This document shows, piece by piece, positions 13,550-22,607 of a stretch of 64,000 bases of DNA. The stretch lies in assembly GCA_964106645.2 (NCBI GenBank), contig OZ067046.1; one strand, written 5' to 3'. Position 1 is the first letter of the stretch, and each line of letters opens with the position of its first letter. The stretch is from Podarcis pityusensis (lineage: Eukaryota). The notes under the pieces are model-generated. The model saw nothing but the letters and a program-made list of their open reading frames with translations, made no database searches and was not told the DNA's origin. The translations under genes and the position numbers were made by a program.

Positions 13550-14765
13550 TCAGCAGCCATGCAAGCTTTCCCACAGCAAAGTATCAACCAAATGTCTCAA
13601 CCCTGTTCTGGAGGAACCACCTGTTGAGGTGAGAAGGTAGTTCAGTCTCTTTATGTCCAGACTTGATTTGGCTTTTCTGTAGCAACTGCTGTTAAAGAGC
13701 CACACCAATAGCCCTAACAAGGATGTGGACTTTGGAGAAAAGCTTCCAGCCTTTTGTGTTGGCCACATCCATTAAAAAAAAGTGGTGTTAACTGATAACA
13801 CAGTATTTTGTTCTATGCAATGGAGGAACAAATTTGAAAATATGTCTCAATGATTTTTCTGGTTAAAGAGTTTTCACATCCCCTGCCATAGATTATCAGA
13901 AAATGACAACAGGGGAACATGGTCATTTTAGTTTCTTCTGCCTCCTGATTATTGTGAAGAGGCTGAGAAAACAAATCCTATGCTTCTCAGCAGGAAATTA
14001 TGCTGCTGTACATGCAGAAGGCATGCAGTTTTTGGTTAAAAGGGGGAAAAGGAAAGGTTTCTTCTGTCCCCCACTGCTGGTTTCAACCTTCTCTTTCACA
14101 ATGAAAGTTTGAGAAGGAGATGGAAGACTGTTGAGGCCACGCTTCACTTATTTGCTTGAGCTCTCTTGGGAAAACCTAAAGCAACTCAAGTCCCCCTTCT
14201 TGGCTGAGCATTTTCCAGAATTGTTTGTAGAGGGTGGGGGGTGAATGCAAAGTGAAGAACGATGTTGTGGTTTTTAATTTGTTTTATTTTTAAAATTTAT
14301 ATCCTGACCTTCCTCCCAAAGGAGCTCAGGGTGGGAAAATGGTGTGGGAAGTAGTTCCAGATGCACTTGAGCAGAAAGTTCCACTCTGCCTTTCCTTTCT
14401 GTCCTTCTGCAGCTAGTCTAGAATTCATATCTGTAATGGGGAAAAGGCAACAGTTACTTTGCAGCAAAACCTATGGGCAGATGGTGCATTATATGTGAAA
14501 GATATTTCCATGCCTTGTTCTACAGTAGCAATCTATTATCGATCACAATTCCTGTGATCTGCCAGAGGCTTCTCTTTGAAGGTGTTCTTAGTGCATTAAG
14601 TGAGAGGAGCAAGGCACATGATGTTTCTAGTGGCTGTTCTCTAGCTATGAAATATCCCCCTCCTTAAAGTTTGTCAAAGTCCAGAAGCAATGTTAAATTT
14701 CTTTTATTTAAGAGATACTTATTGGGATAGTTTAGCTCCATATTTTAATCTGTATTTTTTTTGTA

Positions 14766-15007
14766 CAGTGGTACCTCTGGTTACAAACTTAATTCATTCC
14801 GGAGGTCCGTTCTTAACCTGAAACTGTTCTTAACCTGAGGTACCACTTTAACTAATGGGGCCTCCTGCTGACGCCGTGCCGCTGACATGCAATTTCTGGT
14901 CTCATCCTGGACCAAAGTTCTTAATCTGAGGTACTGCTTCTGGGTTAGTGGAGTCTGTAACCTGAAGTGTTTGTAACCTGAGGTGTTTGTAACCCAAGGT
15001 ACCACTG
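14766..15007. mobile_element. Tigger-like MITE, family A copy 2
   Basis: TA|CAGTGGTACCTC...AGGTACCACTG|TA. Colinear with 1331-1556. Confidence 0.9.
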
Positions 15008-15014
15008 TAGTCAT

Positions 15015-15595
15015 ATACAATCCAGATTACAGTGATGTGCTCTATGTGTGCCTTGCTCTGCAGAGCCTGGAGACTCTTCATGTGGTGCAAAACTACTTTG
15101 GATTCATTTGCACTTGTTTCCAGTTGGTTTCTGCATGCAATGCAAAGCCCCAGTCCTAACCTACAAAGACTTAAATGGTTTGGGGGCAGGATATTTGAAG
15201 GGCTGCCTTGTCCCATGTAATGCTGTCTGTCGACTGTGCTCCGTACTGGAGGCCCTGTGTCTCACCAGTTTCAGAAGCATAAAAGACAGCCAAGCATTGC
15301 CTTTTTTTTTGTTGCAGCATCTGCATTGTGGGCATCCTCTCCCTACAGAGGAAATTCAGTTGGCTTCCTCTCTCTTATGCTTTAGGTGCCTTCCTAAGAC
15401 TTAAAAAAAAATCAAATCAAGCTTTTAATGTGGCTTAGAGCTTTGTCTCCCTGTTTCAGCGCTGAATTGTTTTATATTTCTCTTGGTTTTATTGTATGGA
15501 ACTGATTTTATTAATTTTGAACTGCTGTTTTTTGTGAGATGATTTGAGTTTGTTTTATAAATAAAAGCCAGGTATGTATATTTTTAATAAATAAA
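15015..15595 (+). mobile_element. Old L2-clade LINE 3' fragment
   Basis: Degenerate DYSDVLYVCLAL...LHVVQN (L2 ORF2 RLDYCN.L..GLP...LQ.VQN motif), followed by a T-rich 3' UTR and an aataaataaa tail. Confidence 0.55.
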
Positions 15596-15683
15596 GGAGA
15601 TGTATCCAGATACAAAACATAATAACAGCAACAAACCCAGGGCACAACTCATGCTTGTTCAATTCACTGATGGCCTTTTCATT

Positions 15684-16226
15684 GGGTTGTATCCAATGGT
15701 CCTCTTCTAGTTACGGAAGGGCTTTTGCATCCATGAACAGAAAGCAAGGGAGGCAATTTTCACCGCTTATCTCTTCATCCTGCAGCTCCCAGTTCCCTTA
15801 AATTCTGTTCTGGAGGATTTGGGAATCTCTAGCCAGTGTAAGAAGTATTGCAGGGTGCAGCAGGGGAAGAGGTAATAGGTGAAAATTGTCTATCCCAGTT
15901 AAGTTGTGGGTGAACATATCAGACGACACAGCAATTCTTCAAACAGCTCTTGTTTATTCGCAGGCCTGAACTGAACTGAAGGGTTCAGCCAGCCTGCTTA
16001 TATAGAGCTCCACTACAACACAACTGTAACAACTTTCAGTAACTATCCAATCACTGAACGTCACTTTCAATCCCTTATTTGCATATGTGGACCTGAGTGA
16101 AAACTATCTACAGTATCCCCCTGCTGGCCCAGGGTGAGAACATCAGTACATAGCAATCCCCATTCCATTATTAGGCCTTCACTTTCAGGAATTGAAAGAC
16201 CCCTTCTACTCCAATAGATACAACCC
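15684..16226. mobile_element. MITE with GGG-start TIRs and 3-bp TSD (PIF/Harbinger-like), interrupted by a solo LTR
   Basis: GGGTTGTATCCAATGG / CCAATAGATACAACCC match at 14/16 positions. ATT on both flanks. Confidence 0.6.
15897..16155 (-). mobile_element. Solo LTR (~259 bp)
   Basis: 5-bp TSD ATCCC at 15892-15896 and 16156-16160. Ends (a)gtta...tagca resemble decayed TGTTA...TAACA. On the minus strand, TATATAAG is followed by AATAAA. Confidence 0.7.
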
Positions 16227-17426
16227 ATTAATTTTTATGTAGCTGAATTTTTCTGAAGGAACTCAGTGATACTGCAAAACTACTTCATTTTTTGAAGAAT
16301 TTCAGAACTGCAGGTGGTGTTTTGGCTTCGTATTTTTTATAATAAATTATGTCTGAAAAAGCTTGTTGATTGTGTAAATGTGTAAGTGAGGCAAACATGA
16401 GGGAAAGCAGCTGTATTCTAGTAGGGCAAGAAGTTATTGCTTGAGCTGTATGTTAACCTTGGTCAACTTCAGAAATCCCTGGGAGGATATCGGTGAAAGT
16501 GACTACAAAACTTTGGTGTAATGCAGTCCTTACAGGTTCTGGTACTGGTCTAAGTCATGAGCAATGCTTTTAAATAATTTTGCATTTTACATTTAATGGA
16601 ATTTTACAACTCTCCCACCCTGCCCTATGTGTGGATACATAGAATTTGTGTTGCGTGTTCATTTTTACCTGAAGCAAAATACTGCTTTTGTGTAGTAGCA
16701 ATGCACTCTGAACTATAATGAAACAATTTTCACTGTCCTCCCAGTTAACATAAATCTAGTGACTTTTGGTTAAAGTAAGTACAGTTCTAGATCTACCCAA
16801 GGGCATTAAACAACAACAAACCTCTTTCATGTATCTGGAAATGAGAGAAAATTAAAAACACAGAAATATCTTAACAACCTGATTATCCCAGGGTATTATA
16901 CATTTTCCAGGAAGAAATCCAAGATGTATGAGGGGGGTGGGGGTGTCCTTTCAGGCTTTATGTTTTATTTATGATTTGAAGCTTATTTCAGCCACAAAGC
17001 ACTTCAAATGTGGCAACAAAAAAATCTACTGGCCAAAATTTTGATACTACTGATCTCAGTTTCAAAATAATAAACAAGGTTGAACTGAGAGATGGGATTT
17101 GAGTTCTAACTTCATTCTTAAGCTTCAGAAAATAGAGCTAAGCAGCTGGCAGAAAAGTAGGGTGCAATTAAGCAGGGAAATGTCATTCTTTTATGTTGGG
17201 CATCTGAACCACAAAAAAATCTTGAGTGCGGTTTTTATCTCTATGGCCACGTTTATATGTACATTTCTCTGTTTGGTGTTCATCTGCTTGACACCAACCA
17301 AGCATAAGCTTCTCCATCACAGGAGCATGTGGTTTTAAGCCTTTGTTGCTTTTTTGGTGAACCGAGGCAATATCTCTTCTGAACTCAGCCAGCAAGGTTA
17401 GCCACAATTATTGTAATGACTTCTAA

Positions 17427-17579
<153 letters not shown>

Positions 17580-17673
17580 TAATATAGAAGATCAAGAAGT
17601 TCCCACATATCACTGCTGTCTTGTAATCTGTGAAAGTAAGTGCACTGTTAGTTTAGAAGACTGTCTGGTGTAG

Positions 17674-17882
17674 TCAAAATAAAAAAATCCTTCCAGTAGC
17701 ACCTTTAAGACCAACTAAGTTAGTTCTTGGTATGAGCTTTCGTGTGCAAGCACACTGTATCTGAAGAAGTGTGCTTGCACACGAAAGCTCATACCAAGAA
17801 CTAACTTAGTTGGTCTTAAAGGTGCTACTGGAAGGATTTTTTTATTTTGACTATGGCAGACCAACACGGCTACCTATCTGTA
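17674..17882 (+). mobile_element. Penelope-like element remnant (inverted pseudo-LTR arrangement) with 14-bp TSD
   Basis: ACTGTCTGGTGTAG at 17660-17673 and 17883-17896. Perfect 86-bp inverted repeat. Hammerhead motif. Tail ggcagaccaacacggctacc resembles squamate Penelope ends (from recall). Confidence 0.8.
17757..17794 (+). ncRNA. Minimal type-I hammerhead ribozyme motif
   Basis: GUAU-CUGAAGA-A-GUGUG(CUUG)CACAC-GAA-AGCU-C^AUAC. Contains the CUGANGA and GAAA cores, stem II, palindromic minimal stem III, a UC cleavage site and stem I GUAU/AUAC. Confidence 0.75.
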
Positions 17883-18570
17883 ACTGTCTGGTGTAGGTTA
17901 GTATCAGAGTCTTTTCACTAAATGCACATGCGGGGGGGGATGGAGAGGGAGATTTAGAATTTAAAACTCTAACCATGACTAGTAAAGTGGCATGTAGTTT
18001 ATCAATAAACTAGTGATGCATTGTATCTTTGGCAGGGAACGGAGTCTTTGTCTGTTTGATTCAATAGAAAAAGGATCTTTAATATACCATTAGGCTGAGA
18101 GCTACAGAAAGACAAATGTGTTTATTATTTAACAAACATCCCTGGGTGGGGAGTCCTTCTGTCAATGTGGGCAATACAAATGAGTTCTTCAGAAGATATA
18201 ATCCTGGTTCAATGCTCAAAATTGACGTGCCTGTTTCCATCTACTCCTTACCCAGGAATAGCCAAATTTGTACAGCACACTTTGTCTCTCTTGTATAAAA
18301 CTCCAGTGGTGAGTATCCTTCTCCTCCTGACCTTACTGCTTAGTACCATTCACCAGTAAATCCTGCCCATTTTGTAATGAGCTTCCCTTTTTTCAAGATA
18401 TGTCATTGGCAGGCAATGGTCGGTAAACTCCTAATGACCATAATTCATGTGGTGAATGGTGGTAAATGATACACATGCAGCCTAGGACATTCACCCAAGG
18501 AATGTGGATCTCTACAGAGAGTGTGATGTATGTTCTAATTCAGTCCTTTGTGCTGCCTGTGATTAGCATA

Positions 18571-18735
18571 GGGAAGGGGCATAGGTTAGATGGTTCGATC
18601 CCTGGAATCTCCAGGTAGGGCAAGAACAGCTGCTGTCTGAAACCCCAGAGAGCTGCTGCCAGTCAGAGTGGAAAATACTGAACTAGATGGATGAATGGTA
18701 TGGCTTGGGATAAGGCAGTTTCCTGTGTTCCTATG
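18571..18735 (+). mobile_element. tRNA-derived squamate SINE. Related degenerate copies at ~9573-9720 (+), 922-1328 (-, interrupted), 58000-58175 (-) and 59310-59420 (-)
   Basis: B-box GGTTCGATCCC. Body gagagctgctgccagtcagagtg...aatactgaactagatgga. Tail ttcctgtgttcctatg. Confidence 0.7.
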
Positions 18736-19241
18736 TTAGCACACATGAAGGGGAATATAATTGTATTCGTGGATATTTGAGGGTGATATAGAAGGTGAAG
18801 TCATTGCAGAAGAATTAAAGTCCTTATGCAGAAATTTACCTCATGATTCAAATATCATCTGTGTCCTGAACTTGGTTGCCTTAGTCGTAAGTTAGCTCCT
18901 CAAGAATGGTAGCCTCAGATGATCTGCCTTAAAGAATTGCAGGAAGGATTACAACCTGATACATAAAGCATTGTGAACACTTTAAAAGCATTATATAAAT
19001 GCTAAGTATCATTGTAACCTGATACATTTTTAATGTGATGTTGCTCTCCACATGCCTGTGTTACAAGGCAAGTTTTAGCCAATAATAATAATAATTCATA
19101 CCCTGCCCATCTGGCTGGGTTTCCCCAGCCACTCAGGGAGGCTTACAGCATATATAAAAACAGCTAGAGTACTGCAGTATCCCATGTGAATTTGGGGGTC
19201 TGTTCAACAAACAAAAACATTTCAGTACCATTCCCCACTGC

Positions 19242-19410
19242 CAGTGGCGTAGCGTGGGTTGTCAGCACCCGGGGCAAGGCAAGTAATTTGCGCCCCCTAA
19301 CCCTGAGTGAGCCAGGTAGGGGCAGAGAGCTGCGAGTGCGAGCGCGCGCCCCCCCCAGATGTTGCGCCCGGTGCGGCCGGCCCCCCCGCACCCCCCACGC
19401 TACGCCACTG
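19242..19410. mobile_element. Young hAT MITE (169 bp)
   Basis: Perfect 17-bp TIR CAGTGGCGTAGCGTGGG / CCCACGCTACGCCACTG. Perfect 8-bp TSD CCCACTGC at 19234-19241 and 19411-19418. CpG-rich. Confidence 0.93.
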
Positions 19411-20439
19411 CCCACTGCTACTTTGAAGCAATTCAAAGGAAATTAAAAGTTGTGGCTGTGAAAGTCAAAGAATTCCCTATAGACTTCAAAATCTGTTTCT
19501 CCACCTTGAAATCCATTAGGCATTTTTAAAATCTCCTTAATGCCTGATCATCTTGATCGTTGTTCCTCTGGTGCCCAAGCATGCGAGTTGAGATTTTGTT
19601 TGTGTATCTTTTGTATGACTCATAGAAGACCTGAGATTCTTAGATAATCCTTTGAGACTCAAAGGTGACATGTACAGAAATGAATAAAATGTGCCATGTT
19701 TGTACAGCATAATTGTGCTTGTAACAAGTTTCTGAAGGTATTGAATGATTCTCTTGTTTGCTAGGCTGACCTTGTATAGAGTAAGCAAAATCCTGTGAAA
19801 TGCCAAACACTACCCCGGTCCAATATTGTGCTGAAACAGTTAATTTTTCATTCACTTCAAAATTGTATAGCCTTCGTATCTCTATAAAAAAATTTAAATG
19901 TGTAATGCCCAACTGTCAATAAAACAAAACCAACACAATACTATGTAATACAATAAACTGAACTGTAGAAAACACAACTTGAAAAAAGAGACAATGCACG
20001 TATTTTTGTAAACTAAGAAATCTTTAATAACAATATGTTTTTTTAAATACCATGCAATACAATAAAATTAGTATATCTGCTTGCATTTTATGTTTTGTTG
20101 TATTCACAATAGTATGTGGCTGTCTGCAGCTTGCATTAGTTTTTGTGAGTTTACATTTTTCAGTGGTTTCAGAATGGTCAGGCAGGGCCAAATATATAAA
20201 TAGTGATGACCAACATTTCCTATCTACGTTTTTAGCTGTTTCTATTTTAGCTGTAAGCCGCCTTAACTTTTTCATTGCTGAGAAATGTGCAAATTCATCT
20301 TCACTTGAGTAATTTGTAGAATAGGAAAATACCTCCAAGATACACCTGGAATGCACACTGAGTGTAGATTTCTAAAATGGATGCCTGAAAAATGTGCTTT
20401 CTTGGACATCTTTCAAGGAACTGTAGCAGGAGGATTATA

Positions 20440-20683
20440 CAGTCGTAACTTGGTTCTCGAATGGAATCCATTCAGGAAGTCTGTTTGACTTCCAAAAACA
20501 TTCAAAAACCAAGGTGCAACTTCTGATTGGCTGCAGGAGCTTCCTGCACTCAAACTGCGGAAGACACATTGGACATTCGGATTCCAAAAAAAGTTCATAA
20601 ACCGAAACACTCACTTCTGGGTTTGTGATGCTCGGGAGCCAAAACGTTTAGTCACAAGGTGTTCAAATACCAAGCTATGACTG
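20440..20683. mobile_element. Tigger-like MITE, family B
   Basis: TA|CAGTCGTAACTTGG...CCAAGCTATGACTG|TA. Confidence 0.8.
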
Positions 20684-20806
20684 TATGCCACATGAAGTTA
20701 GGATACTTTTAAAAACAGTAGTTTTATAAGCACCCCTTAGTATGATAGTGGAAGTTAAGCTAAGTCTACTACTAACATAGCTTTATTCCTTTTCTCCCTC
20801 TGCAAG

Positions 20807-20967
20807 GTGAAAGAACCTTTAAGTGTGATCACTGTGATGCAACCTTCAAAAGGAAGGACACATTGAACGTTCACATACAAGTAGTTCATGATGGCCATAA
20901 GAAATACAAATGTGATTTGTGTGACAAAGCCTTTGTGACACCGTCTGTGCTTAAGAGTCATAAAAAA
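20807..20967 (+). CDS. PRDM5: PRDM5 coding exon (161 bp; ~exon 12): [54 protein letters not shown]
   Basis: Pyrimidine tract plus aAG acceptor (20805-20806) and donor GTAAGT at 20968. Two C2H2 fingers. Phase 1 in, phase 0 out. Confidence 0.97.
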
Positions 20968-22607
20968 GTAAGTATAACCCGTAGCTTGTAAAAACTGAGG
21001 TCATTGTAATAGGTTAAATTCATTCAGTGTGTACTATGCTTACCTTTGAATATACAGATAATGGAATTTATTTTAAGGTAAATATTTTCAGCTGCGGATT
21101 GTCCATACCAACAGAGTAATAAATACTTATGAAAAGTGATAGCATATGCAAATATTAGAATTAAGGTAGCTGTAAACACAGTTTTCAAGAGCAAGCAATG
21201 AAGACCTCCAAGCTTATTGGTGTGGTCCAATCTTATTTATGAATCAGTGGAGCTGTTTTAAGACTCCCCAACAATCTTTATTCCTTTGACTGCGACTTAC
21301 TACAATTTTTTCCTCATATCTCACTCTCATTCCTTATTCTGATAACAATAGGATTGTTCATTAGCTTCAGAGAGAAATCTATGCAAGAACTTGTATTATT
21401 TTAATTGGTTGGTTTGGGAAACATTGCAAATGTGGATGTAGACAAATACCCAGAAGGGTATGAAAGGCTGGAATAAATCATTCTTTCAACATTTCTTCTT
21501 CCATTGCCTTTGTATACCTGCTGACAGCTATTGAAAAAGCCCAATGACTCAAAGTACATAGCTTCTTGGGGAAAAATGCTAAACTCTTCCCTTCTTTGTT
21601 AAGCAATTGCACGTTGTATGCCCTCTCAGGGCCAAGGCTGTGGTCTTGAGTTTGAAGTATTGACGGGTTTGTATTTGTCTTCACTTTGATTTCATTATTG
21701 TTTTGTGCTGTTGCATTTGATAAGATGAGCTATGTCAACACTCTCTCCACCTCACTCTGTAAGTCCTGACTTTCGATGAACAGAGTAAATATTGACATTG
21801 TTTATCCACTAGGGATGCAGGAGTTAGTGGCAGGATTTATTACGATTAAAAGAAGTCTCTAGAAGGTCATATCCTCTGTCACCTTACCTAACTGGCAGGT
21901 AGACTTATGGTTTTGATTAAACTCTTAACAGTTTTGTAATGGAAAAAAGTTAACTATATTGATTTTTAAAATAAAATAAAATCCTGAACTAGTAGGCAGA
22001 AGCCTAAACCTTCGTTTAGAGGATATTTTTTCTTACAGTTGTATCCATGGAGAGATCAGGAATATATGTAGAGTTTTTGCCCTCTCATTCTTCTTCATTG
22101 GTTCTTACTGTGGAAAGAACTGGAAGTGACTGAACTGGAAAATCCTGCATTCGAACAAACGCAGTCTGCCTGAACTTTGCAAGACAGCACCCATTTGAGT
22201 GGCCAGAAGCACCCAGTGTCTGCACTGTGATGTCCTTGGCTTTGATTTTTATTTATTAGAGCTTTTCTAATCAGCCCTTCAGACTCTTTCCAAATAAAAA
22301 GGTGCCAAATCTAGTTTGTGGGGCACGAGTGTTCCATAATCGTGAGTGCAGTCACTGAGAAGGCCTTTGCTCTTGTTCCAGACAGCTGAGTTTCCACCCT
22401 AGGTGGCGATGTCCTTCTGATCTATAGGAGTGGGCAGGGTAGTAAGGGAGGAGGTAATTCATACAGTATACTGGACCTAAGCTGTTTTAAAGGGAATCCT
22501 GAGAGTGTGGTATTGCTCTCCCCTCACAGTTGTCACCCTACAGTGGTGGCCTCTTTTACTTCTCACCACTTTATTTCACTGGCAGTGGCTGTTGGAGTCT
22601 TAAATAT

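Follow-up and report, generated by a model that had tools for sequence, protein, structure and literature searches.

The window, that is, the whole 64,000-nucleotide stretch of Podarcis pityusensis DNA analyzed here, carries part of the PRDM5 gene on its plus strand. A zinc-finger exon at 17478–17571, which encodes a C2H2 peptide and whose AG/GT boundaries were read from the sequence, is followed by a 3,235-nt intron (17572–20806, with GT at 17572 and AG at 20806), and the frame runs on from this exon into the next C2H2 finger exon after 20806. The identity of the gene comes from its first coding exon, located ~35 kb upstream of the window, which matches human PRDM5 in PDB 6XAZ (E 7e-13). Downstream of the zinc-finger exon, the intron hosts a 223-bp insertion, and within it lies a minimal type-I hammerhead ribozyme motif (17757–17794, plus strand) with a predicted cut after C17790. 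The motif is in the sense orientation relative to PRDM5 and stands 186 nt after the donor GT, as a first-pass annotation of this DNA had proposed; the donor at 17572 and the acceptor at 20806 bear this out. Other high-copy repeats occupy the same intron, at about 18610–18730, 19080–19460, and 20425–20666 of the window, and a G + C-rich piece near 19241–19420 is abundant in RNA reads. The depth over PRDM5 exons was 0 in RNA run X23 (~12% read) and <1 in run X21 (~6% read), with no splice joint seen; both runs are labelled organism C, whose DNA run X8 is without the insertion, and they are thus silent on the allele described here.

Within the motif, a 4-bp stem I (17757–17760 with 17791–17794) encloses the CUGAAGA core box at 17761–17767, an extra A at 17768, stem II (17769–17773 with 17778–17782; 5 bp and a 4-nt loop), the GAAA box at 17783–17786, and a palindromic AGCU at 17786–17789. 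The sequence therefore contains the CUGANGA and GAAA core boxes together with a UH cut site. Helix II opens with G10.1–C11.1 and an extra base is present between positions 9 and 10.1, both of which are features of the class as set out in PMC4209133 (this and the other papers are cited for the sections of their text available to us). The letters of the motif, its core boxes, stem I, AGCU, extra A, and the cut site after 17790 are all as first described. A stem II of 5–6 bp had also been suggested; five pairs are confirmed, and a sixth is rejected as it would leave a 2-nt loop. Stem II (17769–17782) is itself a near-palindrome, which becomes perfect in copies with A at 17775; the predicted pairing of two isolated motifs through this stem (−25.7 kcal/mol) offers a possible second mode of dimer formation.

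Across the window plus 80 kb of upstream sequence, a type-I descriptor matches 17757–17794 alone. In the genome, 5,455 sites match a 34-nt ribozyme pattern exactly (control, 0), and a relaxed pattern with the core boxes and stem III fixed has 9,757 matches, compared with 5 for a reversed control. The single descriptor match in this long stretch, along with the excess of 9,757 over 5, argues that the motif did not arise by chance. A scan of 14000–22000 against Rfam, with E values up to 10, gave 14 matches, none of them a hammerhead; this silence is probably because minimal hammerheads of Penelope-like elements (PLEs) lack helix III. The matches themselves are miRNA-hairpin models that fall on the inverted repeat described below and score under their gathering thresholds. 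A miRNA identity was rejected, as these matches merely reflect the inverted repeat.

Within the insertion, an inverted repeat has the motif in its loop and right arm. A direct repeat and the joint of the empty site identify a 14-bp target-site duplication, with a left copy at 17660–17673, the last 3 bases of which match the element too, and a right copy at 17883–17896. Between them are two arms placed head to head. The inverted arm (17671–17756, minus strand) is tail-less and is the reverse complement of 17768–17853, giving a perfect 86-bp inverted repeat that leaves an 11-nt loop at 17757–17767; it is without CUGAAGA, so that no ribozyme exists on the minus strand. The direct arm (17756–17886, plus strand) consists of the 3′ part of a pseudo-LTR (pLTR) and the tail of a Neptune-type PLE. 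It is identical at 131 of 132 positions to the pLTR of the full-length copy L124, and is 98–99% identical to six full-length loci. The tail of ~33 bp (17854–17886) is confined to this arm, and its last 4 bases match the right target-site copy too. Short matches are thus found at both junctions: 4 nt at the tail end and, at the inner end, 3 nt with another match of 5 nt close by. The direct arm also holds the first ATG of the parent element (17853–17855; codon 42 of 951), with ~11 codons present here.

Five non-RNA contig sets were compared at this site: X1 and X6 from organism A, X2 from organism B, X8 from organism C, and X7. In X1 and X6, position 17659 is joined to 17883, with 223 bases skipped and 14 letters that fit both sides; the short side of this empty-site joint is 255 letters long in X1 and 45 in X6. 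A single contig in X8 covers 17300–17659 and then 17883–18199, which is again the empty site. In X2, a single contig runs up to 17663 and resumes at 17904, so that the insertion is absent along with 17 more bases; loss of these bases (17887–17903) could reflect an independent deletion or imprecise loss of the hairpin. The contig of X7 stops 56 letters beyond 17658, a length that would fit the empty site. The insertion is therefore absent from site-crossing contigs of four of the five other samples, which indicates that it is recent and not fixed. No join of flank to element was found among the contigs listed from the five samples; carriers among them are possible. It is feasible that the insertion could serve as a presence/absence marker. 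As a separate observation, contigs at least 99% alike to 17660–17886 number 1,361 in X2, 1,292 in X7, 744 in X8, and 43 in X6, and loop base 17775 is nearly always A in X1, X6, and X8. Because of these counts and this loop base, the subfamily seems to be very unevenly amplified among close relatives.

Longer copies of the family encode reverse transcriptase (RT) and GIY-YIG domains upstream. In a 422-aa piece, Pfam GIY-YIG was detected at E 1e-4 (22.9 bits, above its cut-off of 22.6), and Pfam RVT_1 at E 9e-7 with 29.2 bits, which is just below its cut-off of 29.6 for what is a partial protein. In a protein search, 150 out of 781 candidates were scored; all were 99–100% identical and several lay in frames of 951 codons. 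The parent unit is 3,010 bp long and stands in tandem or partial tandem at six loci, with the 130-bp arm of the window at both ends. The motifs YIDD, CNKP(R/K)CQLC (the linker), and VYGI...LYIG occur in 7/7 long frames (951 codons; six loci). The parent thus has the single open reading frame, with RT followed by a C-terminal GIY-YIG domain, of endonuclease-bearing (EN+) PLEs, along with their tandem units forming pLTRs, inverted truncated copy, one-sided tail, and target-site duplication. The CX4CxxC linker, present in all seven frames, is a mark of Neptune and Nematis elements (PMC8557442). Judged by its sequence, the parent is a young Neptune-type Penelope-like retrotransposon, the type being named from the linker motif. 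The pLTR match, the parent element, and the gene identity together uphold the original description of the motif as a minimal type-I hammerhead from a Penelope-like element, lying in sense within a PRDM5 intron. Among the full-length copies (L121–L126), L121 (G000:C9:17784000-17793500) has two complete units of 951 codons, arranged as a direct tandem, and three pLTRs; L122–L126 are the others.

The architecture of the family was sampled with a pattern 3′ of the ribozyme (4,672 matches). The first 100 matches listed were taken, with an additional one from the last locus; all of them lie on contig C1 and group into 66 sites. Two arms stand head to head at 31 of these sites; 33 are single-hit and 2 are three-armed. 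One tailed and one tail-less arm were found in 31/31 of the two-armed sites, and a target duplication of 12–16 bp in 22/22 short pairs. The PRDM5 insertion is a typical case of this architecture. Covariation within the stems had been suggested as a check on the motif; no copy out of 30 has a two-sided change in a stem pair, a result that says little for copies selected by a pattern that fixes the core in so uniform a family. In these 30 pattern-selected copies, most of the variation falls at one loop base (A in 16, T in 11, G in 2, and C in 1) and at the cut-site base (C in 19, T in 11). Contigs not picked by pattern show the same two frequent differences in the motif together with G17783A at 7–17% of depth, which lies in a CpG and is read as decay of dead copies. 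Two clusters of copies were also seen. Three of the first 30 copies (L022, L023, and L024; G000:C1:4.59-4.72 Mb) lie at a near-identical position of another repeat, pointing to a favored target or to duplication afterward. At L028–L030 (G000:C1:6051941-6052158), three tandem 74-bp units adjoin an inverted arm; each starts at stem I and holds a whole hammerhead, with a predicted P(stem II) of 0.02. This is a retrozyme-like array that might provide the dimer needed by the class.

We hold with high confidence that the locus is a head-to-head insertion of 223 bp, formed by a pair of very short copies from a young PLE of high copy number, with a hammerhead that is predicted to be locked in a hairpin and likely does not cut. 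A mechanism of origin can be proposed. The endonuclease of the element would nick both strands 14 bp apart, and each free 3′ end would anneal to element RNA through a few bases. The annealed ends would prime reverse transcription at two internal sites bounding the tail, and both cDNAs would extend toward the 5′ end of the uncut RNA before being joined head to head. By analogy, this model fits the two-strand, two-start activity of an anole PLE protein, which cuts and extends both strands, with two internal starts bounding the tail and use of uncut RNA (PMC11167929). Self-priming on an antisense template is a rival route to the same head-to-head shape (PMC3846280). The terms ‘twin priming’ and ‘pLTR’ were found together in none of the open-literature matches listed.

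The ends of family copies bear on the template used in such a process. Among 73 short arms, 27 start within the equivalents of 17754–17758, and 2 more start at the cut site; another 28 arms are longer. Genome-wide, with patterns that demanded two non-element letters before the start, 629 copies have their 5′ ends at the edge of stem I (17757). The cut site (17791) accounts for 15 starts, and the one control position with which it was compared (17793) for 11. As far more copies start at the stem I edge than at the cut site, uncut RNA is the usual template, as it was in vitro for the anole element (PMC11167929). The 15 cut-site starts include three head-to-head pairs with both arms from the cut site, one of which is explainable by a local palindrome; there are none among the 11 controls. 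Three more matches with cut-site starts form a 36-bp tandem array (L139–L141; G000:C2:30803740-30803843). This array and the two head-to-head pairs at L135–L138, whose arms begin exactly at the cut site, are possible products of cleaved RNA, and the paired cut-site starts hint that the ribozyme of the family sometimes cuts.

In the parent pLTR, an initiator-like site at the edge of stem I is preceded, ~30 nt upstream, by a TATA-like box; such TATA and Inr motifs are already on record for pLTRs (PMC3846280). A G stands just before the start in 56 of the first 100 rows listed of 17757 starts, counted by eye in rows that are not all independent and with a pattern that allowed A, C, or G at this position. 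We infer a capped transcription start at the stem I edge. A tentative proposal, which we consider possible rather than probable, is that the short copies mark the start of the RNA at the 5′ edge of stem I and that the hammerhead is a protein-gated off-switch of the element's mRNA. The capped message would then open with the hammerhead as its first 38 nt, and the cut would remove a 34-nt capped leader before the open reading frame, serving to switch the message off instead of excising a unit-length RNA. Such a role would explain why nearly all inserted copies derive from uncut RNA. Penelope-like hammerheads, the transcription start, and head-to-head arms were not found treated together in the open literature.

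Folding predictions address whether the ribozyme can cut in place. Alone or in a solo 130-nt unit, the ribozyme fold (stems I and II with an open core) has a predicted probability of 0.07–0.09. Because the inverted arm is transcribed first and pairs with it, the predicted penalty against this fold is 34 kcal/mol in nascent RNA to 17794 and 45 kcal/mol in the whole insertion. The region 17650–17910 folds as one hairpin (−174.7 kcal/mol, z −25.8) in which 17757–17767 becomes an 11-nt loop and 17768–17794 is paired to the inverted arm. In folds of successive prefixes, each base added from 17775 onward pairs with the inverted arm, before the ribozyme is complete. At 12/13 other short inverted sites with the whole motif, P(stem II) is <3e-12; the exception is a tandem array. 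No second element or descriptor copy was found in the window and 80 kb upstream, a span that covers the coding gene and includes 200 bases of N. The antisense arm emerging first would thus capture stems II and III and the 3′ strand of stem I, and the intron would be spliced out carrying an inert hairpin. From nearest-neighbor folding alone, the hammerhead likely does not cut PRDM5 pre-mRNA; unwinding of the hairpin by RNA helicases, by ADAR editing, or by element protein acting in trans is conceivable. The proposal that this pre-mRNA is a plausible self-cleaving substrate is therefore not supported, given the antisense arm made first, the predicted 34–45 kcal/mol penalty, and the lack of a second copy in the gene. 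Nor is there support for the PRDM5 instance being special, as had been thought, given thousands of genomic copies and the absence of the insertion from contigs of other samples.

Different explanations can be set against this view. Long intronic duplexes undergo editing in vertebrates, and the predicted perfect 86-bp duplex (−174.7 kcal/mol), together with an AATAAA hexamer from the inverted arm at 17678–17683, raises the idea that the ribozyme is silent and the hairpin itself acts, through A-to-I editing, Dicer, the donor 99 nt upstream, or a poly(A) signal. We consider this improbable. The same kind of structure is present at 31 of the 66 sampled family sites, which would make any effect generic; the AATAAA is buried in the predicted stem and five further copies of it occur in the same intron; and editing of an excised intron need not matter.

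Slow self-cleavage of PRDM5 pre-mRNA, helped by element protein or a trans RNA and lowering the output of the allele, seems very unlikely. The core is intact, in sense, and identical to that of full-length copies, a related organism has RNA matching the element on both strands, a few family copies start exactly at the cut site, and the hammerhead of the anole PLE cuts once protein is added, which, in the available sections of PMC11167929, it does solely when the protein is present. However, the predicted penalty in context is large, no partner copy lies in the window and 80 kb upstream, and minimal PLE hammerheads were inert as monomers in vitro and of low activity as dimers (PMC4209133). Along with this, reads of family-derived RNA have no position with many molecule starts or ends, in libraries that are weak for such ends; 98–99% of the element-matching reads come from other loci.

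We give still less weight to the inverted arm or the whole insertion being an artefact of assembly. The lack of a flank-to-element contig among those listed from the other samples would be in keeping with it, but the empty site is exactly duplicated over 14 bp, there is microhomology at both junctions, and the one-tail asymmetry and duplication length agree with 31 and 22 independent family sites, respectively. Least credible of all is a domesticated, conserved intronic hammerhead like those of amniote RECK and C10orf118: the motif is intronic, in sense, of type I, and in a conserved gene, but it is absent from site-crossing contigs of four of the five samples, 99% identical to full-length elements, minimal in architecture, and without an Rfam hammerhead match.

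The motif is thus likely to be an ordinary passenger in the PRDM5 intron, and not a switch. Its import for PRDM5 is small: the insertion is recent, one of thousands, and by prediction inert. It does provide a caution, in that intronic hammerhead motifs of PLE-rich genomes must be folded in context. Furthermore, the ends of insertions in a young, uniform family can test PLE integration (two priming sites, one per strand), and can also test what PLE ribozymes are for (PMC4209133, PMC11167929).

The class, the architecture, and the intronic location are already known. No paper in the open literature was found that treats PRDM5 together with a hammerhead, and this instance may be unrecorded, yet it is one of thousands. 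The closest likeness is to the minimal hammerheads of metazoan PLEs (Cervera and De la Pena 2014, PMC4209133), with which the motif shares the 4-bp helix I, the extra nucleotide before helix II, G10.1–C11.1, the palindromic helix III region, and the location in a pLTR, as well as an occurrence in thousands of mostly single copies and in close pairs on opposite strands. Helix II has 5 bp here compared with 7–8 in Schistosoma. The family is very uniform, as is Penelope of D. virilis and unlike most genomes in that study, and the motif here differs in being paired to its own antisense copy.

Insertions of EN+ PLEs (PMC8557442, PMC3846280) are similar in their head-to-head arms, a tail of ~30–40 bp on one arm, a target-site duplication, an inverted 5′-truncated pLTR, a pLTR that includes the first codons of the open reading frame, and TATA/Inr-like motifs, here in the parent pLTR. 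In contrast to the examples in these sources, both arms here are <135 bp with no body of the open reading frame, and the target duplications are 12–16 bp, compared with 8–10 bp in the rotifer examples. Poseidon PAc of Anolis carolinensis (Frangieh et al. 2024, PMC11167929) likewise has a tail bounded by two internal 3′ end points, copies mainly uncut RNA, and has RNA-seq reads that do not end at the cut site. The parent here differs from it in its Neptune-type CX4CxxC linker, and its first ATG is 63 nt downstream of the cut site, whereas the PAc open reading frame starts inside the ribozyme.

Non-LTR retrozymes (bioRxiv 10.64898/2026.07.22.740005) are also non-coding, derived from PLEs, and equipped with a type-I hammerhead. 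They are built of tandem units with at least two ribozymes, whereas the PRDM5 locus has one, in an inverted arrangement. In Xenopus, 42–44% of retrozyme copies overlap introns according to the same source, and an intronic site is therefore common. The amniote intronic hammerheads of RECK, CTCL/C10orf118, and DTNB (PMC6155905, PMC10761166) are alike as type-I motifs in introns of host genes; they are conserved across species and cleave in vitro. No such conservation is seen at the orthologous site of PRDM5, which is empty in X1, X6, and X8 and without the insertion in X2. Compared with these amniote examples, the PRDM5 motif stands out as minimal, of recent origin, unfixed, and, by prediction, sequestered.
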